Below are positions 40,983-63,760 of a stretch of DNA of 64,000 bases, piece after piece. A model generated the notes under the pieces. That model saw only the letters and a list, made by a program, of their open reading frames with translations, made no database searches and was not told the origin of the DNA. This stretch comes from Escherichia coli. Lineage in GTDB: Bacteria; Pseudomonadota; Gammaproteobacteria; Enterobacterales; Enterobacteriaceae. Within the stretch, counting starts at the first letter, position 1. Each line of letters begins with the position of its first letter. The translations under genes and the position numbers were made by a program. Location: assembly GCF_046105845.1 (NCBI RefSeq), contig NZ_CP151004.1. The stretch is one strand, 5' to 3'.

Positions 40983-41221
40983 GAGGATATCCTTCAGCAT
41001 AAATGTAATAGACAAAATGCAGTGTACCGGATACCGCCAAAAGCGAGAAGTACGGGCAGGTGCTATGACCAAGACTTTTTGACCTGAAGTGCGGATAAAA
41101 ACAGCAACAATGTGAGCTTTGTTGTAATTATATTGTAAACGTATTGCTAAATGTTTTTACATCCACTACAACCATATCATCACAAGTGGTCAGACCTCCT
41201 ACAAGTAAGGGGCTTTTCGTT

Positions 41222-43666
41222 ATGATGATTTTGAGTATTCTCGCTACGGTTGTCCTGCTCGGCGCGTTGTTCTATCACCGCGTGAGCTTATTTATCAGCA
41301 GTCTGATTTTGCTCGCCTGGACAGCCGCCCTCGGCGTTGCTGGTCTGTGGTCGGCGTGGGTACTGGTGCCTCTGGCCATTATCCTCGTGCCATTTAACTT
41401 TGCGCCTATGCGTAAGTCGATGATTTCCGCGCCGGTATTTCGCGGTTTCCGTAAGGTAATGCCGCCGATGTCGCGCACTGAGAAAGAAGCGATTGATGCG
41501 GGCACCACCTGGTGGGAGGGCGACTTGTTCCAGGGCAAGCCGGACTGGAAAAAGCTGCATAACTATCCGCAGCCGCGCCTGACCGCAGAAGAGCAAGCGT
41601 TTCTCGACGGCCCGGTAGAAGAAGCCTGCCGGATGGCGAATGATTTCCAGATTACTCATGAGATGGCTGATTTGCCGCCGGAGTTGTGGGCGTACCTTAA
41701 AGAGCATCGTTTCTTCGCGATGATCATCAAAAAAGAGTACGGCGGGCTGGAGTTCTCGGCTTATGCCCAATCTCGTGTGCTGCAAAAACTCTCCGGCGTG
41801 AGCGGGATCCTGGCAATTACCGTCGGCGTGCCGAACTCATTAGGCCCGGGCGAGCTACTGCAACATTACGGCACTGATGAGCAGAAAGATCACTATCTGC
41901 CACGTCTGGCGCGTGGTCAGGAGATCCCTTGCTTTGCACTGACCAGCCCGGAAGCGGGTTCCGATGCGGGCGCGATTCCGGACACCGGGATTGTCTGCAT
42001 GGGCGAATGGCAGGGCCAGCAGGTGCTGGGGATGCGTCTGACCTGGAACAAGCGTTACATTACGCTGGCACCGATTGCGACTGTGCTTGGCCTGGCATTT
42101 AAACTCTCCGACCCGGAAAAACTGCTGGGTGGCGCAGAAGATTTAGGTATTACCTGTGCGCTGATCCCGACTACCACGCCGGGCGTGGAAATTGGTCGTC
42201 GCCACTTCCCGCTGAACGTACCGTTCCAGAACGGACCGACGCGAGGTAAAGATGTGTTCGTGCCGATCGATTACATCATCGGCGGGCCGAAAATGGCCGG
42301 GCAAGGCTGGCGGATGCTGGTGGAGTGCCTCTCGGTAGGCCGCGGCATCACCCTGCCTTCCAACTCAACCGGCGGCGTGAAATCGGTAGCGCTGGCAACG
42401 GGTGCGTATGCGCACATCCGCCGTCAGTTCAAAATCTCTATTGGTAAGATGGAAGGGATTGAAGAGCCGCTGGCGCGTATTGCCGGAAACGCTTATGTAA
42501 TGGATGCTGCGGCATCGCTGATTACCTACGGCATTATGCTCGGTGAAAAACCTGCCGTGCTGTCGGCTATCGTTAAGTATCACTGTACCCACCGTGGGCA
42601 GCAGTCGATTATTGATGCGATGGATATCACTGGTGGCAAAGGCATTATGCTCGGGCAGAGCAACTTCCTGGCCCGTGCTTACCAGGGCGCACCGATTGCC
42701 ATCACCGTTGAAGGGGCTAACATTCTGACCCGCAGCATGATGATCTTCGGACAAGGAGCGATTCGTTGCCATCCGTACGTGCTGGAAGAGATGGAAGCGG
42801 CGAAGAACAATGACGTCAACGCGTTCGATAAACTCCTGTTTAAACATATCGGTCACGTCGGTAGCAACAAAGTTCGCAGCTTCTGGCTGGGCCTGACGCG
42901 CGGTTTAACCAGCAGCACGCCAACCGGCGATGCCACTAAACGCTACTATCAGCACCTGAACCGCCTGAGCGCCAACCTCGCCCTGCTTTCTGATGTCTCG
43001 ATGGCTGTGCTGGGCGGCAGCCTGAAACGTCGTGAGCGTATCTCGGCACGTCTGGGGGATATTTTAAGCCAGCTTTACCTCGCCTCTGCCGTTCTGAAGC
43101 GTTATGACGACGAAGGCCGTAATGAAGCCGACCTGCCGCTGGTGCACTGGGGCGTACAGGATGCGCTGTATCAGGCTGAACAGGCGATGGATGATTTACT
43201 GCAAAACTTCCCGAACCGCGTGGTTGCCGGGCTGCTGAATGTGGTGATCTTCCCGACCGGACGTCATTATCTGGCACCTTCTGACAAGCTGGATCATAAG
43301 GTGGCGAAGATTTTACAAGTGCCGAACGCCACCCGTTCACGTATTGGTCGCGGTCAGTACCTGACGCCGAGCGAGCATAACCCGGTTGGTTTACTGGAAG
43401 AGGCGCTGGTGGATGTGATTGCCGCCGACCCAATTCATCAGCGGATCTGTAAAGAGCTGGGTAAAAACCTGCCGTTTACCCGTCTGGATGAACTGGCGCA
43501 CAACGCGCTGGCGAAGGGGCTGATTGATAAAGATGAAGCCGCTATGCTGGTGAAAGCTGAAGAAAGCCGTCTGCGCAGTATTAACGTTGATGACTTTGAT
43601 CCGGAAGAGCTGGCGACGAAGCCGGTAAAGTTGCCGGAGAAAGTGCGGAAAGTTGAAGCCGCGTAA
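41222..43666 (+). CDS. fadE: acyl-CoA dehydrogenase
   Basis: 814 aa from [18 protein letters not shown]...; N-terminal membrane segment then acyl-CoA dehydrogenase domains. Confidence 0.9.
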
Positions 43667-43673
43667 TTGAATA

Positions 43674-43699
43674 ACGGAGCCGAAAGGCTCCGTTTCTTT
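43674..43699. terminator. terminator hairpin between convergent fadE and ivy
   Basis: ACGGAGCC-GAAA-GGCTCCGT followed by TTCTTTAT. Confidence 0.6.
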
Positions 43700-43708
43700 A
43701 TCCGCTAA

Positions 43709-44182
43709 TTATTTAAAATTAAAGCCATCCGGATGGTTTTCCAGGCTGCCGGTCAACGCCGCGAACAGCACCGTTTTACCATCAATCGAAAGCGCATCGT
43801 TCACATTCAACCAGGTGAGTTTCTCTTGCGACGTTTTCTCATCAATGGTCGAGAACAGCCCCGTCATCTGATTAGATTTCTCGGACCACATCACAGCGAT
43901 ACGTTGCGAGCCACAGTCATGCGGTTTGCACGCGCTCATCACCTGATACGTCTCATCTCCCAATGTCACGGTTTGTGCAGGGGTATAAGTCCCGCCTTTC
44001 ATCACCCAAGCAGGCAGCTTATGCCCTTGCACCATCTGATTAAACGCAGCTTTGGTGGTTTCGCCCTTTGCAAGGCTGCTAATGGTTAAATCATCCTGCG
44101 CCATTGCACTGGTGGCGATGACCAGAGCGGCGACTGTCGTTATTGCCTTAAACATCATTCCTCCCGAGCTTATCCTGCCCAT
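43709..44182 (-). CDS. ivy: inhibitor of vertebrate C-type lysozyme
   Basis: 157 aa, signal peptide, conserved CKPHDC loop. Confidence 0.9.
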   Translation of the reverse strand: MGRISSGGMMFKAITTVAALVIATSAMAQDDLTISSLAKGETTKAAFNQMVQGHKLPAWVMKGGTYTPAQTVTLGDETYQVMSACKPHDCGSQRIAVMWSEKSNQMTGLFSTIDEKTSQEKLTWLNVNDALSIDGKTVLFAALTGSLENHPDGFNFK

Positions 44183-44335
44183 GTTATTAACCTCCTAAAG
44201 CCTGGCGATAACACGATAATTTGCAAATCAGATATTTCCAATATCAGCATTTGTTATCAATTTATTCTGCGCTAAGGCAACTGCCTGATAAGGTGTTAGA
44301 GTTATAAAACCCTTCGCATAAAGGAGTTGTACACC

Positions 44336-45106
44336 GTGCCTGGTTTGAAGATTACGCTTTTACAGCAACCACTGGTGTGGATGGATGGTCCTGCCAACCT
44401 GCGTCATTTTGATCGTCAACTGGAAGGCATTACCGGGCGCGATGTGATCGTTCTACCGGAGATGTTTACCAGCGGCTTTGCCATGGAAGCGGCAGCTGCG
44501 TCGCTAGCACAAGATGACGTAGTGAACTGGATGACAGCCAAAGCGCAGCAGTGCAATGCGCTGATTGCAGGCAGTGTTGCATTACAAACGGAGTCTGGTT
44601 CGGTTAACCGCTTTTTGCTGGTTGAGCCGGGCGGCACGGTACATTTTTATGATAAGCGTCATCTGTTCCGCATGGCAGATGAGCATCTGCATTATAAAGC
44701 GGGCAATGCGCGAGTGATTGTGGAATGGCGCGGCTGGCGTATTTTGCCGCTGGTGTGCTACGACTTACGTTTTCCGGTGTGGTCGCGCAATCTCAACGAT
44801 TACGACCTCGCCCTGTACGTCGCCAACTGGCCTGCTCCGCGCTCTCTGCACTGGCAGGCATTGCTGACGGCCCGCGCGATTGAGAATCAAGCGTATGTGG
44901 CGGGATGCAATCGCGTCGGCAGCGATGGCAACGGCTGCCATTATCGCGGTGACAGCCGGGTGATTAATCCACAGGGCGAGATTATCGCCACCGCCGACGC
45001 GCATCAGGCAACGCGCATTGATGCGGAGCTGTCGATGGTGGCGTTGCGGGAGTATAGAGAAAAGTTTCCGGCATGGCGGGATGCGGATGAGTTTAGGTTG
45101 TGGTGA
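44336..45106 (+). CDS. yafV: omega-amidase (nitrilase-superfamily C-N hydrolase)
   Basis: Start set at GTG giving MPGLKITLLQQ... (256 aa); nitrilase-family E-K-C triad context (VCYDLRFP). Confidence 0.85.
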   Translation: MPGLKITLLQQPLVWMDGPANLRHFDRQLEGITGRDVIVLPEMFTSGFAMEAAAASLAQDDVVNWMTAKAQQCNALIAGSVALQTESGSVNRFLLVEPGGTVHFYDKRHLFRMADEHLHYKAGNARVIVEWRGWRILPLVCYDLRFPVWSRNLNDYDLALYVANWPAPRSLHWQALLTARAIENQAYVAGCNRVGSDGNGCHYRGDSRVINPQGEIIATADAHQATRIDAELSMVALREYREKFPAWRDADEFRLW

Positions 45107-45219
45107 GTGGGTGTTGTGTTTAGGGCCGGGGAGAGTCGGGGTATGACTACGAAAGCCCCTAACTTAAACACGATATTACGCCAGAAGTCACCATTTCCAA
45201 AACACAACGCCGTTGTACC

Positions 45220-45390
45220 GTGGGATATCTGCCCAACAGCAGCGACACGCCGGTGATCAAAATCAGCGCCAAATGGCTGAGAGAAGCGGGATTTGAGATC
45301 GGCACGGGCGTTACCGTGAAGATCCCGGAAGGTTGCCTGATCCTGCTTGCGGATAACAACGAAGTACAGGAACTGAGGAAGGAACTTTAT
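45220..45390 (+). pseudogene. SymE-like (AbrB-fold type I toxin family) gene fragment
   Basis: From a GTG start, ...TPVIKISAKWLREAGFEIGTGVTVKIPEGCLILLA... closely resembles the SymE core (KGQWLEAAGF.TGT.V.VKV.EGCIVL). The frame then continues for ~100 codons antisense to the convergent MucR-like gene, which I regard as non-coding read-through. 3' boundary approximate. Confidence 0.4.
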
Positions 45391-45758
45391 AAGGTTAAAC
45401 AGGCTGTCTTCAATATAGAACCGGAGCGATTACGCCAGTCAGGATCTGACTTTAGTTGCCTTCTCTTTATTCTCATCATGGCTATTTGTTCTGCGGGATC
45501 AAGCTTTCCCTTTGCTATTCTCGCCTTCATATATTCAATTTGTTTCTCCAGATATGAAATCCCTGCCAGTGCGATGTGCTTCGGTATGTTCCATTTTTCA
45601 CGATATTCGTCAGCGCGTATTCCATGCACAAACCAGATATGGCGCGGTAAAAAAATGAGCAACTTGCCACACTCCAGACAGGGTATTTTTTCCCGCTTAT
45701 GATATGCCAGAACCTCTTCACGCGTTTCGAATGGCCTGTTCCTCTCTTTTTTGTACAC
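45387..45758 (-). CDS. Ros/MucR-family zinc-finger transcriptional regulator
   Basis: 123 aa with the Ros/MucR signature IPCLECGKLLIFLPRHIWFVHGIRADEYREKWNIP (C-x2-C ... H-x4-H followed by EYREKW.LP). Confidence 0.7.
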   Translation of the reverse strand: MYKKERNRPFETREEVLAYHKREKIPCLECGKLLIFLPRHIWFVHGIRADEYREKWNIPKHIALAGISYLEKQIEYMKARIAKGKLDPAEQIAMMRIKRRQLKSDPDWRNRSGSILKTACLTL

Positions 45759-45822
45759 AAAGACTCCTTTTAAAAAATGGCAAGGTCACATATCCCTTAT
45801 TGGTACATAAATCCCCCGACGT

Positions 45823-47199
45823 TTACTGACTTTGTTCCACCTTCGTATCCAGTAAAATTACATAGCGATTCAGCAACTGATTTAACCGGGTATCTATCTG
45901 CGTCAACAGCGTCGGCGAAACCTCTCCGGTCTGTTTTTGCTCTTCCAGTTGCCGAAGCAGTTCTTCCAGCGGCGGCTCCTTTAACGACTGCCGGATGCCG
46001 TACACCGCCGTTTTTAGTTCCGAGCCGGTCAGATATCTCCCCTTACGCTCATCCAGTGCATCCAGCTGCGCCGACAGGCGCTGTAGCTGGCTTTGCGCCT
46101 GTGCGTAGCCATTCAATGCCTCAGCAGACATGGCGCTCAGCTCCCGCTGCTTACGCCACTGCGCGTTCAGCGCCCTGACCTGAGGATTATCCGGCCACAG
46201 GGCATCAAGCTGGCGTAGCTGGCGATATCCCTGCTCCAGCGGCCAGCGGGCAGGCAATTTGTTTAACTGCTCCAGCTGCATCTGACTTGCCGCAATTGTT
46301 CTGTCCTGAGCCAGCAGCGCCTTATCCTTTACATCCAGCTTTGCCAGTTCGCCGCTCTCCAGCGACTGCGGCAACGGCATGACAGACAGTTGTATTCGCT
46401 GGATTAGCGCGTCCGGCTGATTAAGCTGCGACCAGCCCCATAATCCTGTTCCGCCGAGACAGGCCATCACAACCATTCCGGCCATAAATATCGGCCATGC
46501 CCGCTGCCGGGAGATTTCAGGGGATGGCACGGATGGACTGGCATCCTTATCGTTTTGCTGAGCGGGTCTGGTTGCAAAAACCGGCTGTGGACTTTCTTCT
46601 GACTTTTTCGGTTGCTTCATTTCCTTGCGGGGTAATTCAGGGGGAGTGATAGTGGTTTCCGCTCCCTGTGGTGCCAGCCGCTCCAGACGTAGCGCCGCAT
46701 TACGAAACTGCCCGGCCAGCACATCCAGTTTCGTCATATGCCACAGTTCACACTGTTGCAGCGTGGTTTCGATGGCGGAAAGATGCTGTACACAACGGTA
46801 AATCTGCGGCAGATCCTGATACTGAATATCCAGCGTTCTCAGTGCCTGCTGCATTTTTTCTGTGACCCAGCTGAGCAGTGATATTCTGGAATGTACCTGT
46901 ACCGGCCAGAAGTCGGCCCATCGCTGGAGCAGTATGTCCAGTGAACCGAGTCCGTCTGCCATCCCTGCCAGCCCCTGCCGTCTGGTTATCGCCAGTACGT
47001 AACAGACCAGCGTCTGTAATTCCACGCCATTTTGCCGGAACAGCGCGAGGCTGAGTTTTTCCACCTGACGCCAGTCCACATCCGGTCGGGCCGGGTGAGT
47101 CAGTTTACTCATTTCAGCCTGCAGTTCACCGGATTCCTTATAAGTACAGGGATCGCCGCCCATGACGAACTGGCTGATAAAATTCGCGTTACTTGCCAT
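45823..47199 (-). CDS. TssA-family (ImpA_N domain) membrane-anchored T6SS accessory protein, TagA/VasL-like
   Basis: 458 aa; N-terminal ImpA_N-like region (GGDPCTYKESGELQAEMSKL...), one central TM helix (AWPIFMAGMVVMACLGGTGLWGW), Q/L-rich coiled-coil C-terminus; last gene of the T6SS block. Confidence 0.6.
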   Translation of the reverse strand: MASNANFISQFVMGGDPCTYKESGELQAEMSKLTHPARPDVDWRQVEKLSLALFRQNGVELQTLVCYVLAITRRQGLAGMADGLGSLDILLQRWADFWPVQVHSRISLLSWVTEKMQQALRTLDIQYQDLPQIYRCVQHLSAIETTLQQCELWHMTKLDVLAGQFRNAALRLERLAPQGAETTITPPELPRKEMKQPKKSEESPQPVFATRPAQQNDKDASPSVPSPEISRQRAWPIFMAGMVVMACLGGTGLWGWSQLNQPDALIQRIQLSVMPLPQSLESGELAKLDVKDKALLAQDRTIAASQMQLEQLNKLPARWPLEQGYRQLRQLDALWPDNPQVRALNAQWRKQRELSAMSAEALNGYAQAQSQLQRLSAQLDALDERKGRYLTGSELKTAVYGIRQSLKEPPLEELLRQLEEQKQTGEVSPTLLTQIDTRLNQLLNRYVILLDTKVEQSQ

Positions 47200-51026: not shown

Positions 51027-51431
51027 CTAAGGACATATAGATGGATCATTTATTTCAAAAGAAAAATCGGACTCCATACTAGATGAGGATTTTTTCAATA
51101 AAGAGGAGATATGATATCCAGATAAAGTTTTAGAATTGTTACCATCAGATATCAAAATACTAAGTTCAGAAACAATATTTACAGGGTTTTTATTAAAAAC
51201 ATCTGACTCTCTACCTGTGTAAATAAAGTATACAATTGGCTTCCGCTCTCCGATATCAAGATGAAAATTATCTCTTACTTTACCATCATAATGTGTTGAA
51301 TTATTGACCGTCGAAATGTTAATAGATACTTTGCATGTATTTACCATGACAATGGAACAAGAATAGAATGGTTGAGATAAACATCCAGCACACAGCGTAC
51401 ATAATAAAAAAAAGAATATTAATCTAGTCAT
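51027..51431 (-). CDS. lipoprotein-like secreted protein; candidate immunity protein for the upstream PAAR toxin
   Basis: 134 aa; N-terminal signal peptide with Cys cluster (MTRLIFFFLLCTLCAGC...); start overlaps the stop of the PAAR-HExxH gene by 8 nt; AT-rich. Confidence 0.4.
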   Translation of the reverse strand: MTRLIFFFLLCTLCAGCLSQPFYSCSIVMVNTCKVSINISTVNNSTHYDGKVRDNFHLDIGERKPIVYFIYTGRESDVFNKNPVNIVSELSILISDGNNSKTLSGYHISSLLKKSSSSMESDFSFEINDPSICP

Positions 51432-52863
51432 GAAATTTCACCCGAGATAACCATATCATTGCACATACATCGTTTTCGACAGCAACCGACCTTGCATATA
51501 GATCACTGGTGTATATATGCCCATTATAATATTTCATTAAATCTATCTCGCCAGTTCCTGGATAAACTGAATGAGGCAGTGCATATTGAGGTGGTACAAG
51601 ATTAGAGGTCCCTTTATGCTCCCATGAATACGTATTCCCACCGTAACTTTTTAATATCATATGACCAGTCTCATGGGCTACATCAAGTTTAAATTCTAAT
51701 CCAGCCTTAAAAACAGGATCCGCGCCTTTCTGATACCCACGGCCATATTCATAATACCCCCTATTGAAATAAATGTTCATACGTCCCATAAAAGCACTAG
51801 ACCTGACGCTTTCTAGATCTTGCTCCTCAATTAAATCAAAAGAATCCATGGCTGGATCAATATTTATTGATACAGAGATATTTACATTATATTTACCGTG
51901 CGGAGTAGTAATATTATTGCCAATTCCGGGATTCCTCATTCCATTTCGTGCCCAATAATACTCTATTCCATCCTTGGCAAGTTGCTTTAATTTTTCAAAC
52001 CCTACAGGTGCAATACGATCATCTTTATGACTCACACCATCATCTTCAAATTCTACTCGCCAACTGACATCAACTATTTTTTGATTCTTGTCTACTTTTA
52101 CATCAATCCAATCTTCCTCATTCGCAGAAGTTTTCAATGGATAATCAACTTTTATCATCATATCACCACATAAAGCAATCAGTCTTACGAGTAGTGATTT
52201 GCTTTTTAGCTTAGTTGTATCCAGTATGTCTTGATTACTGTAGCCATCCCATTGCCAGGCATGCTCTCCCTTATCAAAATATTTACCGGTCTGCTGTTCA
52301 CTATAAATCACTTCATTACCATCAAGCACTTCCAGAGAAAGCGCTTCAGCCTCATCGCCTTTATTTGTGATGGTAAAATCTATTTTTTCTGTATTCTTCG
52401 TACTACCACCGCTAATCATTTCTTTATAATCAGGTATATTCAATGGCGTCAGTATCTTATTACCTGATAATTTAATTCTGTAATCCAGTTTTACATCATC
52501 TGAGGATGAATCAGAACCAGAAGTCAGATCCTTTTTCGCCGACTGCGCATGTTGTTCCGCTTCACTTCCCCCGTCATCCGTCTCATACACATCATCCATC
52601 ATTGACGCAATAAATCGCGCCTTACACGGGCAACTGCTCTGACTGTCCAGCGATCCCGCCATCAGCCTGCCGTGAATATCCGTTTCCGGCACGCCGCCGA
52701 CGATAATAAACATCCCCGAATGTTTACCGCAGGTCACTCTGTCCATATCCCGCGCCTGCGGGATACCCATGATCGTATGGTCGTCCGCCCCTTCAATAAT
52801 TTTGCCGCCGCAGGTGGTCTTATCGCCCCTGACCAGAAAATAGCCTCTTCCCATCGTCATCAC
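51424..52863 (-). CDS. PAAR-domain protein with C-terminal HExxH (putative zinc metallopeptidase-like) toxin domain
   Basis: 479 aa. The N-terminal ~90 aa fit the PAAR pattern (RGDKTTCGGKIIEGADDHTIMGIPQARDMDRVTCGKHSGMFIIVGG); then an acidic/Ser-rich linker; the C-terminal region contains HETGH. Start overlaps the tssA stop. Confidence 0.65.
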   Translation of the reverse strand: MMTMGRGYFLVRGDKTTCGGKIIEGADDHTIMGIPQARDMDRVTCGKHSGMFIIVGGVPETDIHGRLMAGSLDSQSSCPCKARFIASMMDDVYETDDGGSEAEQHAQSAKKDLTSGSDSSSDDVKLDYRIKLSGNKILTPLNIPDYKEMISGGSTKNTEKIDFTITNKGDEAEALSLEVLDGNEVIYSEQQTGKYFDKGEHAWQWDGYSNQDILDTTKLKSKSLLVRLIALCGDMMIKVDYPLKTSANEEDWIDVKVDKNQKIVDVSWRVEFEDDGVSHKDDRIAPVGFEKLKQLAKDGIEYYWARNGMRNPGIGNNITTPHGKYNVNISVSINIDPAMDSFDLIEEQDLESVRSSAFMGRMNIYFNRGYYEYGRGYQKGADPVFKAGLEFKLDVAHETGHMILKSYGGNTYSWEHKGTSNLVPPQYALPHSVYPGTGEIDLMKYYNGHIYTSDLYARSVAVENDVCAMIWLSRVKFHD

Positions 52864-57400: not shown

Positions 57401-57852
57401 CAGTGTTGCCCGGTCAGCCCCGGCGCGATGGCTTCTGCCTGTTCAGGCTCGCCGGTCACCTGCAGCAGGCGGACTTTACGCCGCCAGAACGGACCGTAGC
57501 GGTCGCGCAGGAAGGCGGCGAGTTCCACCATTGCCGGATGACGGCTGTCGGCTTTCTTTGTCGTCACCGCCCGATAGTCATCCCCGGCGGCAAGCTGTCT
57601 GCGGAGTTCAAAGTTCTGTACGGCAGCGTGGCGGTTCAGCAGATGATAAACCCCCATGATAATCAAAAAGACCACGCCTGCGGCAATCACGCCCGCCATC
57701 CAGTACATCTGCTGCGGGCTGCCCGGCTCGACGCCCAGCAATGCCGGTTTACGGTGAATGAGCGTACAAAGTGCAACCACGACAGCCACGGTCATGACGA
57801 TTACTGGCCCTGAGAGCGAACGGGGCCGGAGACGGCTTAATCCCGGAACCAC
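54463..57852 (-). CDS. tssM: T6SS membrane-complex protein TssM (IcmF family)
   Basis: About 1130 aa from a GTG start at 57852-57850, 8 nt after an AGGAGG RBS and overlapping the upstream stop by 1 nt (alternative ATG at 57798; the ORF track extends to 58113). Two N-terminal TM helices, a third TM around residue 430, large C-terminal domain. No Walker A seen by eye. Confidence 0.8.
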   Translation of the reverse strand: MVPGLSRLRPRSLSGPVIVMTVAVVVALCTLIHRKPALLGVEPGSPQQMYWMAGVIAAGVVFLIIMGVYHLLNRHAAVQNFELRRQLAAGDDYRAVTTKKADSRHPAMVELAAFLRDRYGPFWRRKVRLLQVTGEPEQAEAIAPGLTGQHWLEGDHTVLIYGGRPSAEPDVTLLTALKKLRRSRPLDGIIWALTEEQSRQTAQLDKGWRELINGSKRLGFQAPLYLWQVCDNGDYQTGRPLQSVGCLLPERCPPEQLAVMLEAQTLPLTEQGMSQLLTDNRHDFLLRLAHTLAERGIAHWQTVLKPLLAGGAFSSLRLRGLMFSPPLTAVPEAAPHAWLPSPVWAGVTGDNARGRTVGFPWLRAALISGICMLAIWGAGMTTSFFANRALVQETSIQTARALDTRLPLSEQLVALHTLQGELERLQYRIREGAPWYQRFGLERNQQLLAAAFPGYAQAANRLVRDVAVDHLQQQLNAFVALPPNSPQRTATGEQRYKQLKALLMTSRPEKADAAFFSTTLMADGLRYENIPEGVRQSVLPSLLTFWMANLPEHPQWKTSPPPELTGAVRKILLRQIGVRNAENTLYQNVLQQVSRNYADMTLADMTGDTLTESLFSTEQTVPGMFTRQAWEGQVREAIEQVVTARREEIDWVLSDRQQDTSADISPDTLRNRLTSRYFTDFAGSWLAFLNSIRWKKEDSLSGILDQLTLMADARQSPLIALTDTLAWQAAAGRENRGLSDSLAKSAQELFNGKEKTPQQSREDDVPVGPLDKTFAPLLRLLGDKAGGGGGDTQLSLQTYLTRVTRVRLKLQQVTNAPDPQEMTQQLAQTVLQGKTVDLTDTRDYGRLIAASLGEEWSGFGQALFVRPVEQSWRQVLTPAADSLNRQWQRAIVSHWNQDFAGRYPFKASQNDASLPLLAQYLRDDGRINQFIAANLSGVLKREGRYWVADAMNTQGLTVNPDFIRALNRLRDVADTAFASGDAGIHFELRAKPARDVMKTHLVIDGQELEYFNQKERWQRFNWPDEQWQPGASLSWTSTQAMERILADYRGSWSLIRLLEQAQVTPVDSSTFKVVWKAQDGLPLNYLLRVEQGKGPMALLELKNFRLPGQVFLTGRSMKDAEEYGEDADE

Positions 57853-59066
57853 TATGATGCCTCCTGCGGTAAAACGAACGGCGACACCACGGTCGCCCAT
57901 GAATAATGTCCACCCTGAACGCCGCTGAGCGTCAGTTGGGGTTGTTGTAAATGCACTGACGCCAGCGCCGCAGCGGCGACGGACAGCCACGGCGCAGCCG
58001 GGCCGGAGCGCCCCAGAAAGGCATCCAGCTCGTACATCAGGGCTTCCTGAGCAAACGGCTGGTTCAGGCTTAACAACGCGGCACGCTGTTCCCTGTCCAG
58101 TTCGGCAGTCCACATGCCGGATATTGCATCTGGCTGCACCGGCATCCAGTCCAGCGCCTGTGCAATGCCTGACACCATCATCTCTGTATCAGTGATACGT
58201 TCAGGACGATGCAGCAGGGCCAGCGGCGTCAGCGCGGTTTGCGTCAACCGGTTTGCCAGCAACAGCGCGGTGGCGGATTCTGCCGTCCGTTCCGGGTTCT
58301 TCGGTTCAAGTCGTACGGAAATCACCAGCAGTACGGCCTTTTCCTGAATAAAGTTGTCCAGCCAGTCGTCCACGGCGGCCAGCCCCGGCTCCGGGGCAGA
58401 AAACAGACGGGCTTCCGGGAGTCCGGCTTTTTGCCATTCGTCCTGCCAGATAGCCATAACCGTTGACTCAGAAAGCGACGTACTGGTTTCTAAAAGCACG
58501 TTGATATGAAAATCATCGGGTAGCAGCGTCAGTTGCAGCCTGATATCGCTGAACAGACGGGAAAAAACTTCGGATAGACGTCCGGTAACCGGTTTATTGG
58601 TTAATACAGGGATGACACTGCGACGCACAGTATCTTCTCCGCGCAAATCAGCGTAAGTATTCAACACCTGCTGACGCGCCAGAAATGCTGTTGTAGTTTC
58701 TGCAACGGAATCACCATTCAGCGCGGTTTGTACGGAAAAACTGAGTATCTGCAACGCCCGTCGTCCCCGTCGCGTTTCCTGCAAAATCACCTCTTCCCGG
58801 CGCTTATTCCAGGCATCAGCCCGAATGTACTGCGTGATAAAAAACAGCCAGCGAACTGAAGCAACCAGCGACCAGATAAAGGCAGGCACACCACAGGCCA
58901 GCCCCCAGAAATACGGGCCGTTTTTTGCCAGTTCATCGCTGGCAAATAATGAAGTCAGGGCCACACCTGTGGACAGCATCAGTAATAAGGCTGACAGCCA
59001 TTTAATGCGGGCTGGCGGTGTGGGATAGGGTTCTGCGTCGGGAATGGCATGGAGTCGAACAGGCAT
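57852..59066 (-). CDS. inner-membrane protein of unknown function, translationally coupled to tssM
   Basis: 404 aa; two N-terminal TM helices (WLSALLLMLSTGVALTSLF; FWGLACGVPAFIWSLVASVRWLFFI) then a ~300-aa soluble domain with no motif I recognise; GC-rich like the core tss genes. Confidence 0.4.
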   Translation of the reverse strand: MPVRLHAIPDAEPYPTPPARIKWLSALLLMLSTGVALTSLFASDELAKNGPYFWGLACGVPAFIWSLVASVRWLFFITQYIRADAWNKRREEVILQETRRGRRALQILSFSVQTALNGDSVAETTTAFLARQQVLNTYADLRGEDTVRRSVIPVLTNKPVTGRLSEVFSRLFSDIRLQLTLLPDDFHINVLLETSTSLSESTVMAIWQDEWQKAGLPEARLFSAPEPGLAAVDDWLDNFIQEKAVLLVISVRLEPKNPERTAESATALLLANRLTQTALTPLALLHRPERITDTEMMVSGIAQALDWMPVQPDAISGMWTAELDREQRAALLSLNQPFAQEALMYELDAFLGRSGPAAPWLSVAAAALASVHLQQPQLTLSGVQGGHYSWATVVSPFVLPQEAS

Positions 59067-59126: not shown

Positions 59127-59504
59127 TTACTCTGATACATTTATGGTATATATTTTGCCAAACCGTCCTCTGCCACCACCACCTATGGAGAATCCTCCGA
59201 TTTCAATGACTATCGCCCCTTTTACAACAGGGATACCCTGAACAATAAGGCAACTATTTTGGTCTGGCTCAAAAACATCAATAGTCAAACCCGAATTCTC
59301 AGGCCTGAAATCTTTCAATGGAAAAAAAGGTACAGGCCCAACTCCTCCTGAAATCTCGATTTTTGCATAGTAACTCTGACCTAATTTTGCATCAGGCAAG
59401 GAGTCTGGGGAAACAGTAGTTTTTGGGATGATTAGCATATGTAAACATCCAGTTAGTGATATTGATAATGAACATATGAGTAAAAATTGAATTGTCTTTT
59501 TCAT
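59127..59504 (-). CDS. small lipoprotein; candidate immunity protein
   Basis: 125 aa; lipoprotein signal MKKTIQFLLICSLSISLTGC; ATGA start/stop overlap with the upstream gene; Gly-rich C-terminus; AT-rich. Confidence 0.45.
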   Translation of the reverse strand: MKKTIQFLLICSLSISLTGCLHMLIIPKTTVSPDSLPDAKLGQSYYAKIEISGGVGPVPFFPLKDFRPENSGLTIDVFEPDQNSCLIVQGIPVVKGAIVIEIGGFSIGGGGRGRFGKIYTINVSE

Positions 59505-60361
59505 GACTTGTTAGTGTCAATGTCAATATAAACCTGATTGGATCTAATGTTAAATTTATCTTCAAGTTTTTCACCCGACATATCAAGATTTAGCAGTAAT
59601 TTTTTAATTCCATCGTCGTTATTATCACCTAAGCATGAATTATCTGGTTCGAGGTGGCTATTATCTTTATTAAAGAAGCATATGTATTTCTGGCTCAATA
59701 GATTAAACATTTTTTTATAGATGCGCTGCCGAACAAGCCATTGTTCATTGACAAACGGATATTCAAGAGTACCTACCTTGTAACGCCGTAAGCCCGGCGG
59801 AAAAGCATATAAAGATTTATTCAAATAAATACTGACAACATACTTTTCCCCGGATTTAATCTCGAACCAGTTTCCAGAATCAGGATCGTCATCATAGCCA
59901 TTACAAAATGAACCCAGAAAATCCAGTCTTGAGTTATCAGTAATAATAAGAAAGTCTTGTTTACATGATGAGGTATATGCCATGTCTTGTTTATTTTTTT
60001 TAAAAAAAGTCAGAAAAATATCAGGAAGATAGAATGAATGGTGGCTTTTATTTTCAAATTCTATAGTCATTACAACTTCTTTTTTAGATTTTTGCTCTGC
60101 AAATAAACGGATAAACATGTTGATTTCAGACTGTAGCTTTTTATTTTCTTTATCATCCAATAAGTATCCTGGTGAGAGGAAAACATACTTCTCATCATCA
60201 CGTAATGGATAAAAAAAAGGTGAGTCAGTTACTATTCTGCTTTCCCCATAACCATAACCATACTTCTTAAAAACCAGTAAGTCATCGGCAATTGAATTAA
60301 GTGAAAACAGCAATAAGAAACAAAAAATTGCATAATTAATAAATTTACTAAATGTATGCAA
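59501..60361 (-). CDS. secreted protein of unknown function; candidate immunity protein
   Basis: Start placed at the TTG 7 nt after GAAGGAGG, giving the signal peptide MHTFSKFINYAIFCFLLLFSLNSIA; the ORF track's longer version starts at 60397. Very AT-rich. Confidence 0.45.
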   Translation of the reverse strand: MHTFSKFINYAIFCFLLLFSLNSIADDLLVFKKYGYGYGESRIVTDSPFFYPLRDDEKYVFLSPGYLLDDKENKKLQSEINMFIRLFAEQKSKKEVVMTIEFENKSHHSFYLPDIFLTFFKKNKQDMAYTSSCKQDFLIITDNSRLDFLGSFCNGYDDDPDSGNWFEIKSGEKYVVSIYLNKSLYAFPPGLRRYKVGTLEYPFVNEQWLVRQRIYKKMFNLLSQKYICFFNKDNSHLEPDNSCLGDNNDDGIKKLLLNLDMSGEKLEDKFNIRSNQVYIDIDTNKS

Positions 60362-60448
60362 AATAACCTCCTTCAATAAAAAATCAAAAAAAAACACAAG
60401 TTACATTTTACTCTAAATATAACTTGATTGATTAACAATTAAAGAAGA

Positions 60449-61252
60449 TTACTCGGGTGGTGGTGGGGGATTATTATCAACTATAATTTTTAAATCCTTA
60501 CTCATGTCCTCTTCCACAGATTTTTTTATATCTATTAAAATCTCTTCATTCAGAGCTATCTGAAAATATTTCTCAACATTATAAGCACTTCTGAAAACGG
60601 CCTGATTGTGTTGACTAACCATTGTTTTTGCAGCAGCCAAATGAGCATCACCACTCATAAATGCCGGTTTCCCTTGCGCATTCATATCATGTGTGCTCAT
60701 TCCACCACCAATACCACCTTTGCCGGTCCTACAAAAATGAGACATTTCATGACACAGCGTTGAAACCTGAGAATCAACACCACATAATGGTTTGTCCTTA
60801 AACTTTCCAGCTATAAAAATATGATAATCTTTATCAATAAATTCATTAACTCTGGCAGTGAAATTCCCACATACCGTATTATTAATATAATAGCAAGTTA
60901 ACACTCCATCCTTATCATATCTGAACATTTGATTATGAATTGTTTTAATCCTCTTGATACCATCCTGCATTATTAACAATGCAGTCTGTTTAGTTTCATC
61001 ATCATCTCCTATCAATTCATCACCTTTGGTGCCAAATATTTTATAAAACTCGCTTATCTCTTTTTCCTTCCCCCCCTTATTCCAACCCTCAAGAGAATGT
61101 TCGCGAATCTCAAGAACTTTTTCTTGGGCTTTGTGTGCTCGTAATATCATCTCTTTAAATTTATTAGTAATAACAACTTCAGCGACACAAATCTCTACAG
61201 TAGCTGGAGCTGGAGCTGGCTTGCCGTTTGATATTTTATTTCCCATATACAT
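60449..61252 (-). CDS. VgrG-adjacent protein with HExxH motif; candidate T6SS effector (putative metallopeptidase-like)
   Basis: 267 aa starting 6 nt after the vgrG stop (alternative ATG at 61246 has better RBS spacing). No signal peptide; contains CHEMSH followed by a Gly-rich segment; Pro-rich termini (PAPAPA, PPPPPE); AT-rich. Confidence 0.5.
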   Translation of the reverse strand: MYMGNKISNGKPAPAPATVEICVAEVVITNKFKEMILRAHKAQEKVLEIREHSLEGWNKGGKEKEISEFYKIFGTKGDELIGDDDETKQTALLIMQDGIKRIKTIHNQMFRYDKDGVLTCYYINNTVCGNFTARVNEFIDKDYHIFIAGKFKDKPLCGVDSQVSTLCHEMSHFCRTGKGGIGGGMSTHDMNAQGKPAFMSGDAHLAAAKTMVSQHNQAVFRSAYNVEKYFQIALNEEILIDIKKSVEEDMSKDLKIIVDNNPPPPPE

Positions 61253-61258
61253 TCCCTG

Positions 61259-63760
61259 CTAGTCGATCAGAACTTCAGGAAGTATTAATTCAACCTTTAT
61301 TTCCTGATCATTGTCTCTATTAAAGTTTTCTGTGTTTCCGTTATCATCAGTTACTCCCTCCTTTTGCGTCCCTTCAGCAAAGTATGCAATATATTTTGTG
61401 TTCGCATAAGGTATGCCATAATCATCCACAAAGTGAAACTGAAGGTTATATTCCCCGCTCTCAATCAACGGAAATGCCATTAGTTCCGGCGTCAGCTTCG
61501 CCTTCGGCTTACGACCGTAATATCCCGCCTTAACGTTATATTCTCCCGGCGTTCCAGCTTCTATCCCGCAGGCATCCAGCCGGATATAGCTGCCACCGCC
61601 GTTTAGGGTGATTTTCTTCTTCGCGGTGATCTTGATCTCATCTTCCGTACTGGTGATCACTATCGATTTCTGAGCCAACAGTTCCATCAGATCGTTCTGT
61701 GCCTGTACCGAGATCGCCCCCTTGTTGGCAAACAGCTTGATACCCGCTTTGCGCACAAACACGCTCAACGCCTGACCCACACCGATAAACATATTCTTCA
61801 CAACACCGATATCAGCGTGATTTCCTGCGTTCGCGATCAGGTTTTTCGATGCCGCCAGTTGCAGGTGCTCTCCGCTGGCGATCGCCACGCCTTTGGGTGC
61901 GCTTAGCAGGATCGCAGCCTGCGTCAGATCTTTTACACTCTGCTGCAACAGCGCTATCTGTGATGACAGATCTGCCGGATCGGCATTCGCCGTCTGCGCA
62001 TCAGTGGACAGCGACTTCATCTGTGACTGTGCGCCATCCAGTATTGCCATCGCCGGAGCCATTTCGCGCACCTGACCCTGCGCCTTGTCCTGCGCGTCGG
62101 CGCTGATAAAGATGCCTTTCTTTGCCCGCACCGCGCCCCACAGATCGGTACGCAGTTCAAAGCCTTCCCCGCGCTGCTGTTTCCCGGCGTCCACCAGATG
62201 ACCGAGGTTTAGCTGGCTCTTGCCGCCGTACTCGGTACTGACCTTGATATGCTCTTTGCCGCGCTCGTCATCCAGCCGGATTTTGTTGTTTGCCGGGGTG
62301 CGCAGCACGTTACGCTTGTAGTTCTGGATGGTCACATGGTCGGTGTGCGCCGAGTCGTGCTTTACCCCGGCGATATACGGTCGGTCCGGGTTGCCTTCCT
62401 CAAAGGCGATACTGACTTCCGTTCCCGCCAGCAGCGGCAGGTGCAGGCCGTAGGTGTCTCCCGCATACGGGCGCGACTGGCGCACCCACAGGCTTTCATA
62501 ACCCGGTTTCCACGTCTCGCGGTCAAAGTCGAGGTTGACCCGGTAGCGCCCGTCCTTGTCGATATGGGCATAGATATCGTTCTTCACCGTGCTGGTGACC
62601 CGCGCCGGGAGCGTTCCGGCCATGACCGGGCGGGGGATAAACGCCGGGCGGTAGCCGTAGCGTTCTGAGTACGGGATAGCGGTAAACGTCAGTTCATAGC
62701 TGCGGTCACGCGCCGCGCTGGCCGTCACGCCGGTAATCAGTACGCCCTTGCGGAACACCGCTGGCGCGTCGTCGCCCTGAACCCTGATTTCCAGCCCCGG
62801 CATCAGCAATGAACTGGTGCTCTGGCCTTTGAGAATGGCCTGTTCATTCAGGTAGCGTTCGTGGCGGATACGGGCATAAAACGCGCCGCTTTCCGCTGAT
62901 TCCTGGTCGCCTTTTTGCAGGAAGTTGTCGGCGTAGTGATAGGCTTCGCCGTAGGTGGTGTTATCGCCCCCGGTGGCGTCATGCTGCTCTGTCATCATCT
63001 CTGCTGTGGCGGTGCGGTAGTTGTAGTCCCGCGTGGTGACGCTTTTCTCCACCACGCTGTATGCCGTGTTCAGCCCCCATACGGCTTCCGTTTCACCATC
63101 AAACAGCCCTGAAGTATGGCGAAGCGGCAGCGTCAGTCCGCGCTCGTAGCCGCTCTGGTCGTCGTAAAACTCGACAACCTCAATTTTCAGCCGGGCGTCG
63201 GTGGCAAAGCGGAACCAGATACCCACTTCCGACAGCAGGCGTGAAATAAACGTCAGGTCGTCCTCACCGTACTGCATCACCTGTTCACGGGACGGGTATT
63301 CGCTTTTGAGGTTAAACACGAAGTCCTGACCGCGCATCTGATGCCGCTCGCGCAGGATTTTTTCGACGATTTGCGGCACCGTCAGATTCTGGTAGATGGC
63401 GTTCTGGCGGCTGCGGGCCAGCAGTGCCATACGGGGTTCAAGGCGCACTTCGTAACGGGCTTCATCCTGTGACGAGGAGAGATGTTTAAAGCCAGTAATG
63501 ACCCCGTACAGGGTGCGCAGGGGGGCCTGCACCGGCATTCCCTGTACGGGCGGTGCCGTCAGGCTGAATGCGCCGTCCTGCATCAGCACCGACTCCGGCT
63601 CGATGGCTTTATCGGTACTGGTAAACTTAATGTCGTAGCGGAAGGGGGCGCTGAGTTGCTCACTACCCGTAAAGGTCAGCACGTCCACCGGGCTTTTCAG
63701 GCTGCGAATTTTGAGCTTGTGGTGCGCGTGGTTAAAGTTTAGGGCAGGAATATTCATCAT
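61259..63760 (-). CDS. vgrG: T6SS spike protein VgrG with C-terminal extension
   Basis: 833 aa; gp27/gp5-like VgrG body, beta-helical region, then an extra ~100-aa C-terminal segment (...ELMAFPLIESGEYNLQFHFVDDYGIPYANTKYIAYFAEG...). Confidence 0.85.
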   Translation of the reverse strand: MMNIPALNFNHAHHKLKIRSLKSPVDVLTFTGSEQLSAPFRYDIKFTSTDKAIEPESVLMQDGAFSLTAPPVQGMPVQAPLRTLYGVITGFKHLSSSQDEARYEVRLEPRMALLARSRQNAIYQNLTVPQIVEKILRERHQMRGQDFVFNLKSEYPSREQVMQYGEDDLTFISRLLSEVGIWFRFATDARLKIEVVEFYDDQSGYERGLTLPLRHTSGLFDGETEAVWGLNTAYSVVEKSVTTRDYNYRTATAEMMTEQHDATGGDNTTYGEAYHYADNFLQKGDQESAESGAFYARIRHERYLNEQAILKGQSTSSLLMPGLEIRVQGDDAPAVFRKGVLITGVTASAARDRSYELTFTAIPYSERYGYRPAFIPRPVMAGTLPARVTSTVKNDIYAHIDKDGRYRVNLDFDRETWKPGYESLWVRQSRPYAGDTYGLHLPLLAGTEVSIAFEEGNPDRPYIAGVKHDSAHTDHVTIQNYKRNVLRTPANNKIRLDDERGKEHIKVSTEYGGKSQLNLGHLVDAGKQQRGEGFELRTDLWGAVRAKKGIFISADAQDKAQGQVREMAPAMAILDGAQSQMKSLSTDAQTANADPADLSSQIALLQQSVKDLTQAAILLSAPKGVAIASGEHLQLAASKNLIANAGNHADIGVVKNMFIGVGQALSVFVRKAGIKLFANKGAISVQAQNDLMELLAQKSIVITSTEDEIKITAKKKITLNGGGSYIRLDACGIEAGTPGEYNVKAGYYGRKPKAKLTPELMAFPLIESGEYNLQFHFVDDYGIPYANTKYIAYFAEGTQKEGVTDDNGNTENFNRDNDQEIKVELILPEVLID

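Follow-up and report, generated by a model that had tools for sequence, protein, structure and literature searches.

A rare, divergent allele of the M35 effector-immunity family in a type VI secretion cluster of Escherichia coli

The closest described relative of the system treated here is that of Escherichia coli PAR, in which the genes AKO63_2953-2956 were named VgrG, 'DUF2345', 'M35-PAR' and immunity (Commun Biol 2023, PMC10673891). M35-PAR (AKO63_2955) kills E. coli when produced from pET22b, the vector used for periplasmic targeting; AKO63_2956 rescues from this toxicity, and M35-PAR binds VgrG only via the C-terminal 'DUF2345' fragment (PMC10673891). The same paper equates AKO63_2955 with the 'M35' toxin domain of PA0262, the VgrG2b of Pseudomonas aeruginosa, which with PA0261 forms a second described pair: a spike-delivered HExxH zinc peptidase, toxic in the periplasm only, and an exported immunity protein (Wood et al. 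2019, PMC6899460). The stretch analysed here (the window) comprises 64,000 nucleotides of E. coli contig NZ_CP151004.1 (assembly GCF_046105845.1) and contains, in a complete type VI secretion system (T6SS) cluster, a vgrG gene followed by the genes of an HExxH effector, a predicted immunity protein and a lipoprotein. The effector and its partner are a rare, divergent allele of the known T6SS M35 effector-immunity family and not a new kind of system.

Indeed, the PAR locus has the order vgrG, effector, a gene for an exported protein of about 300 aa, a 404-aa gene and tssM, matching the window in both T6SS type and slot, and the two loci are alike in effector, exported immunity protein and VgrG end. 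M35-PAR shares 27% identity with the window's effector (BLASTP, E 4e-24), with all the clade motifs present, and AKO63_2956 shares 26% identity with the 286-aa immunity protein (E 1e-25). AKO63_2955 was placed by its published forward primer, which matches exactly at L025:32631, the start of a 262-aa gene; the 'DUF2345' construct was made with a reverse primer that maps at the extreme end of PAR vgrG, so that this construct included the TTR-like domain of the spike. Three published primers (AKO63_2954, AKO63_2956) gave no match to RefSeq PAR within 1-2 mismatches, while the primer-encoded C-terminus, LYSSMQ before the stop, does match. PAR vgrG (L025 30121-32638) is in RefSeq a single frameshifted pseudogene with an internal stop, whereas vgrG is intact in the window; from a gap in the RefSeq locus tags, the published 'VgrG' (AKO63_2953) and 'DUF2345' (AKO63_2954) appear to be its two halves. 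The PAR chromosome holds a second such module upstream. Unlike PAR, the window has an extra lipoprotein gene, and its effector carries a further C-terminal helix and a PPPPP tail, common only to its close relatives.

The two alleles differ also in frequency. Among 5426 complete E. coli genomes, only 5 have the window's cassette (at 97.6% identity, as in E. coli MP1); alleles other than the window's are common, with 196 (the PAR allele), 84 and 135 of these genomes. The vgrG slot of this T6SS type is occupied by four alleles or more, with 5 to 196 genomes each, and the window adds a rare, highly divergent one to a polymorphic M35 effector-immunity family. Recent PGAP and UniProt entries label some alleles 'M35 family metalloendopeptidase' or 'Lysine-specific metallo-endopeptidase domain-containing protein'; these annotations, together with the tested PAR homologue, indicate that the family is already recognised. 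A literature search pairing T6SS with aspzincin, Aspzincin_M35 or lysine-specific metallo-endopeptidase found nothing; PMC10673891 uses 'M35'. An earlier sequence-only reading of this DNA had proposed the cassette as a candidate uncharacterized one and had not recognised its HExxH protein as a named T6SS effector family; neither description is supported, given these labels on the homologues and the published periplasmic toxicity, immunity and VgrG binding of the PAR pair.

The genes under discussion are the following:

61259..63760, minus strand: vgrG (TssI spike), 833 aa; TIGR01646, E 6.5e-135
61259..61483, minus strand: 3′ part of vgrG, for a TTR-like domain of about 70 aa at the C-terminus of the spike; from GC content, alignments and the match to 6SJL
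60449..61252, minus strand: cargo effector, a divergent M35/aspzincin zinc metallopeptidase by sequence and fold, 267 aa
59501..60361, minus strand: predicted cognate immunity protein, 286 aa, Sec-type signal peptide (maximal open reading frame to 60397, 298 aa)
59127..59504, minus strand: lipoprotein, 125 aa, lipobox L-T-G-C, N-terminus MKKTIQFLLICSLSISLTGC
57852-59066, minus strand: protein of 404 aa, membrane segment at the N-terminus; located between tssM and the cargo slot

The effector reading frame begins 6 nt past the vgrG stop, and HEMSH occupies residues 168-172 in the 267-aa numbering. The second ATG, at 61246 behind AGGGA, is likely the true start, which would give 265 aa and coincides with the PGAP start in E. 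coli MP1; likewise, the immunity gene likely begins at the TTG at 60361, behind AGGAGG, giving the 286 aa of the PGAP call in MP1. The gap from effector to immunity gene is about 87 nt, with no overlap, and an ATGA overlap joins the stop of the immunity gene to the start of the lipoprotein gene. GC content is 0.36 in the effector gene, 0.32 in the immunity gene and 0.38 in the lipoprotein gene, versus 0.58 in the vgrG body and 0.61 in tssM (0.58-0.61 when the 404-aa gene is included); at third codon positions (GC3) the three cassette genes have 0.28-0.29 (lipoprotein gene 0.29), versus 0.59-0.72 in these same GC-rich references. The low GC sets in before the end of vgrG, the last 225 nt of which have a GC of 0.38 and a GC3 of 0.37 (0.58 and 0.72 in the vgrG body). 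Export signals were assessed by eye and by Kyte-Doolittle hydropathy only; the maxima in the N-terminal 15 residues are 2.27 for the immunity protein, 2.15 for the lipoprotein and 1.58 for the effector, whose N-terminus has no signal-like hydrophobic segment. The sequence-only reading had described this layout as an HExxH gene directly downstream of vgrG, two genes for proteins with export signals that are chained by a start/stop overlap, and a block that looked AT-rich by eye; this description is confirmed, the AT-richness by computation. For the effector, the immunity protein and the lipoprotein, neither NCBIfam nor PADLOC was informative.

The M35 domain of the effector

Compared alone with the PDB sequences, the effector matches GfMEP (1G12), a peptidyl-Lys metalloendopeptidase, with E 4e-4. 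An exhaustive profile search yielded 52 representative relatives; a wider alignment of 41 sequences and a second one, limited to the effector's own clade, were used. The wider profile covers the whole mature domain of AsaP1 (2X3A) with E 9e-28, the clade-only profile reaches AsaP1 with 1.6e-6 and GfMEP with 1e-5, and Pfam Aspzincin_M35 is passed by 16 of the 41 relatives at E<=0.001 and by 31 at E<=0.1. The AlphaFold2 model built on the 41-sequence alignment shows the M35 fold, with a mean predicted local distance difference test score (pLDDT) of 89.8; it was used in place of a model from a shallow 6-sequence alignment, which was unusable (pLDDT 47.8). H168-E169-M-S-H172 is invariant across the 41 relatives and lies in a predicted helix (162-172), in blocks with pLDDT of about 98. 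Since the domain is significantly similar to M35 peptidases in both sequence and structure, this HExxH is not a chance occurrence.

The zinc ligands of GfMEP are His117, His121 and Asp130 (PMC3268031). In the effector, D189 of T187-H-D189, invariant in the window's clade (clade A) and kept in at least 90% of the 41 sequences, aligns with the Asp of GTDD/GTKD in AsaP1 and GfMEP, and is identifiable as the predicted third zinc ligand; a Gly-rich insertion widens its spacing from HExxH from 9 to 17 residues. E227 aligns with Glu157 of GfMEP, and H168, E169, H172, D189 and E227 are all invariant in clade A. This clade reads TLCHExSH..GGMGTxD..NAYNIERYFE, with the Gly-rich insertion, while clade B has the canonical form HEMSHF..GTxDxxYG..NADSFEYY; among the latter are fragments with an N-terminal VgrG, Hcp or PAAR-like fusion, and full-length Cronobacter VgrGs bear a C-terminal domain of this fold. 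The question put by the earlier reading, whether the protein has a zincin-like fold and a third zinc ligand, is answered in the affirmative.

With respect to GfMEP/Lys-N and AsaP1, both of MEROPS family M35, the effector differs in being a T6SS cargo with neither signal peptide nor propeptide, its predicted inhibitor being a separate immunity protein and not a propeptide; in addition, a Gly-rich insertion of 8 residues separates HExxH from GTxD in the effector, and the cysteine pattern differs. Three further proposals on this protein were dropped. The N-myristoylation-like MGxxxS start is not conserved in the homologues; an argument from disulfides for periplasmic action failed, as only one of the four cysteines (C167) is conserved beyond close relatives; and adaptation of the pocket to diaminopimelic acid (DAP) was abandoned because Asp154 of GfMEP is a second-shell residue that hydrogen-bonds His117 (PMC3268031), and not part of S1′.

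Loader, immunity partner and the exchangeable slot

DUF2345 is found in the last 173 aa of the window's VgrG (E 1.1e-32) and is followed by a TTR-like segment; the C-terminal 52 aa or so match the TTR region of VgrG1 of enteroaggregative E. coli (EAEC; 6SJL, residues 780-831) with E 8.8e-4. The latter domain loads Tle1, and the two systems are alike in that the window's VgrG end aligns with the TTR domain and a cargo gene follows; the EAEC cargo is a phospholipase while that of the window is a peptidase, and loading in the window is predicted from sequence. The last 60-70 aa of VgrG are 48-59% identical to the ends of the VgrGs encoded upstream of effector homologues, whose bodies are as low as 24-30%, and the C-terminal domain is 68% identical to the end of PAR VgrG. 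The TTR-like end of about 70 aa is therefore put forward as the predicted loading site of the effector, and it is the first part of the exchangeable cassette, AT-rich like the rest.

The linkage was followed in 14 other loci, 11 from a scan of species-representative genomes and three metagenomic; the former are mostly from Enterobacterales (Buttiauxella, Rahnella, Citrobacter, Phytobacter, Escherichia, Superficieibacter and Enterobacter), with one Parasulfuritortus. Thirteen of the 14 have, immediately upstream of the effector homologue, a vgrG whose C-terminal domain is homologous to the window's, and a homologue of the immunity protein is immediately downstream of the effector homologue in all the 11 loci with enough sequence. 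The window's immunity protein begins with MHTFSKFINYAIFCFLLLFSLNSIA, followed by DD, a Sec-type signal peptide as judged by eye and hydropathy, and is predicted to be periplasmic; 10 of the 11 homologues are intact; these start with a hydrophobic segment, have a motif resembling K-Y-G-Y-G where the mature protein begins, and share an invariant pair of Cys. Searches of Pfam, NCBIfam and PDB with the immunity protein returned no match. The linkage of a TTR-type VgrG end, an aspzincin and the 286-aa partner is the signature of a module of loader, cargo and periplasmic immunity. This defines the parts more sharply than published, the predicted cargo-specific loader being the last 70 aa or so of VgrG and the predicted cognate immunity protein an exported one of about 290 aa. 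The expectation that homologues would lie beside vgrG is thereby confirmed, and that of a periplasmic toxin with one or two immunity proteins is upheld for the conserved exported partner and not for the lipoprotein, which is absent from the other aspzincin loci.

Two minor points concern the immunity protein. In Buttiauxella agrestis (L013 11028-11677) its homologue matches in two reading frames, which points either to a frameshift in the gene or to an error of sequencing. The Lys of the N-terminal KKYGYG motif was considered as a pseudo-substrate and discarded, as it is not invariant.

The slot itself is exchangeable. In a commoner variant of the cluster, the position between vgrG and the 404-aa gene holds a PGRP-type amidase and a 129-aa gene, and the VgrGs of the two variants are near-identical, the difference being confined to the last 75 residues or so. 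Alternative cargo at one position, behind VgrGs that differ only at their end, indicates that the unit of exchange includes the 3′ end of vgrG. With the metV-linked T6SS cluster of E. coli MP1 the window's cluster shares about 96% identity (95.8% by blastn against that locus, about 96% DNA identity in the vgrG body), and the yafJ-dpaA-lpcA-yafL stretch of the window is 99% identical to E. coli genomes. The block is thus best explained, and in our judgement quite probably, as an exchangeable T6SS cargo cassette made of the last 75 codons or so of vgrG, the genes for effector and immunity protein, and a stray gene for a lipoprotein.

Proposed mechanism and alternative readings

The mechanism that we consider likely as a whole is that of an antibacterial toxin with its immunity protein. 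The effector, of 265 or 267 aa, would be made in the cytoplasm without a signal peptide and fired by the T6SS into the periplasm of neighbouring Gram-negative cells, where it would act as an M35 aspzincin-type zinc endopeptidase, with H168, H172 and D189 as ligands and E169 as catalytic base. It would probably cut envelope proteins N-terminal to Lys or another basic residue, as the retained E227 corresponds to Glu157 of GfMEP, which sets Lys specificity at P1′; the E157D substitution alters P1′ specificity in GfMEP (PMC11985622), and the conserved equivalent predicts Lys at P1′ also here. The 286-aa protein, exported by Sec, would bind the toxin in the periplasm and so protect sister cells. 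The analysis shows the gene anatomy, the fold with its motifs and the conserved linkage of VgrG end, aspzincin and partner; the activity of the window's allele, its Lys-type specificity and its substrate we infer.

Several points weigh against this reading. The effector by itself reaches only E 0.057 with Pfam Aspzincin_M35 (PF14521), short of the threshold, and has no match in NCBIfam; identity to the tested PAR pair is low (27% for the effector, 26% for the immunity protein), and the signal peptides rest on judgement by eye and hydropathy. Moreover, unlike GfMEP and AsaP1, the effector lacks the Tyr-Gly of GTxDxxYG, reading STHDMNAQG, a loss that extends throughout clade A while the pair is present in clade B, and in clade A an invariant Tyr224 replaces the second-shell Asp (GfMEP Asp154). 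Because of these two changes, catalytic competence and specificity of the effector could differ from those of the known peptidases. A more far-reaching proposal, which we regard as unlikely, is that the active site of clade A, with Tyr for the second-shell Asp, no YG, the Gly-rich insertion and the Glu kept, has been rewired and cuts one specific Lys- or DAP-containing link of the envelope instead of acting as a general Lys-N; this link may be the C-terminal Lys of Braun's lipoprotein, the tether between outer membrane and peptidoglycan; another candidate is the stem-peptide bond that precedes meso-DAP. If true, it would be a new T6SS killing mechanism. With the same low likelihood, and separately, the lipoprotein of the cassette may define a mobile orphan immunity family.

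PMC10673891 states that AKO63_2955 corresponds to the toxin domain of PA0262, which implies that the effector belongs to the gluzincin family of the Pseudomonas VgrG2b C-terminus, and both are indeed HExxH toxins acting in the periplasm and linked to VgrG, DUF2345 and a TTR domain. Nevertheless, VgrG2b is a gluzincin, with Glu as third ligand and covalent fusion to VgrG, while the window's effector has the features of an aspzincin and is encoded by a separate cargo gene; profile and fold searches of the aspzincin family gave no link to the VgrG2b C-terminal domain (6H56), neither by similarity nor by a Glu ligand. Membership in that family is thus scarcely credible, and, as read from the profiles and motifs, the effector family is aspzincin and not VgrG2b-like, which corrects the reading of PMC10673891. 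Hardly more probable is an effector aimed at proteins of a eukaryotic host, like AsaP1 and the fungal M35 virulence proteases, with some other role for the 286-aa protein. The closest solved relative, AsaP1, is titled 'toxic extracellular endopeptidase' in the PDB and the strains carrying the cassette come from animal guts; against this stand the exported partner invariably found directly downstream, a hallmark of antibacterial effector-immunity pairs, the toxicity of a homologue in the periplasm of E. coli, which its partner neutralises (PMC10673891), and the peptidoglycan amidase-type protein that is the alternative cargo of the same slot. An antibacterial aspzincin with its periplasmic immunity protein therefore remains the preferred reading.

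The role of the lipoprotein has to be weighed within that reading. The sequence-only reading had admitted it as a second cognate immunity protein, and an outer-membrane-anchored co-immunity protein for the aspzincin would agree with the ATGA overlap with the immunity stop, which suggests translational coupling, with a GC3 equal to that of the rest of the cassette, and with its presence in the five E. coli genomes that share the cassette. However, no homologue occurs in any of the 14 other aspzincin loci with effector and partner, nor in E. coli PAR, while homologues do occur with unrelated partners. One, 73% identical, is found in a homologous T6SS cluster of Salmonella enterica (L021 6535-8321), where a TseH (PF25218) effector gene and two small genes precede it and the 404/405-aa gene comes next; the lipoprotein gene thus stays at the distal end of the variable slot although the cargo cassettes differ. 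Another, 67% identical, follows an unrelated 430-aa orphan protein with a start/stop overlap (L019 6709-8396; L020 2175-3862), next to a DDE transposase/insertion sequence and outside any T6SS. A cognate role for the aspzincin is thus improbable, and the claim of a second immunity protein is not supported; beside such different neighbours, the lipoprotein is probably an orphan or hitch-hiking immunity-type gene, outside the conserved aspzincin module. The 430-aa orphan, which contains ..GETMLCGPAAFVYCL.., may be its true toxin partner. Searches of Pfam and PDB returned no match for the lipoprotein or for the 430-aa orphan. In E. coli MP1 (L001 20228-20539) PGAP starts the lipoprotein gene at an internal ATG (103 aa), with loss of the signal peptide and lipobox; the longer reading frame, with MKKIIRFLLICSLSISLTGC, is intact.

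Neighbouring elements of the cluster

A conserved accessory gene of this type of T6SS, the 404-aa gene, separates the cargo slot from tssM; one stretch of the gene matches in 995 of the 5426 complete E. coli genomes, and homologues have the same position in Salmonella. The protein has no match in NCBIfam.

At 41000-47000 of the window the T6SS cluster abuts fadE-yafV-ivy, a junction common to only 2 of the 5426 complete E. coli genomes; an ISAs1 transposase is annotated under the stretch matching this region in both genomes with the fadE-yafV-ivy arrangement. As the MP1 cluster, about 96% identical, is located at the metV tRNAs, the same cluster type occupies different chromosomal sites.

A second AT-rich island lies on the minus strand at 51027-52863, between tssA and tssF of the same cluster. 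It encodes a 479-aa PAAR-type protein with an HExxH in its C-terminal part (..VAHETGHMILK..) and a 134-aa lipoprotein (MTRLIFFFLLCTLCAGC), the gene of which overlaps that of the PAAR-type protein by 8 nt; neither protein gave a match in NCBIfam or in the PDB sequences. The pair resembles a further effector-immunity set, in which a metallopeptidase-like toxin is fused to PAAR and the lipoprotein would confer immunity. At the same tssA-tssF position, E. coli MP1 has a different PAAR toxin and a DUF1240 gene.

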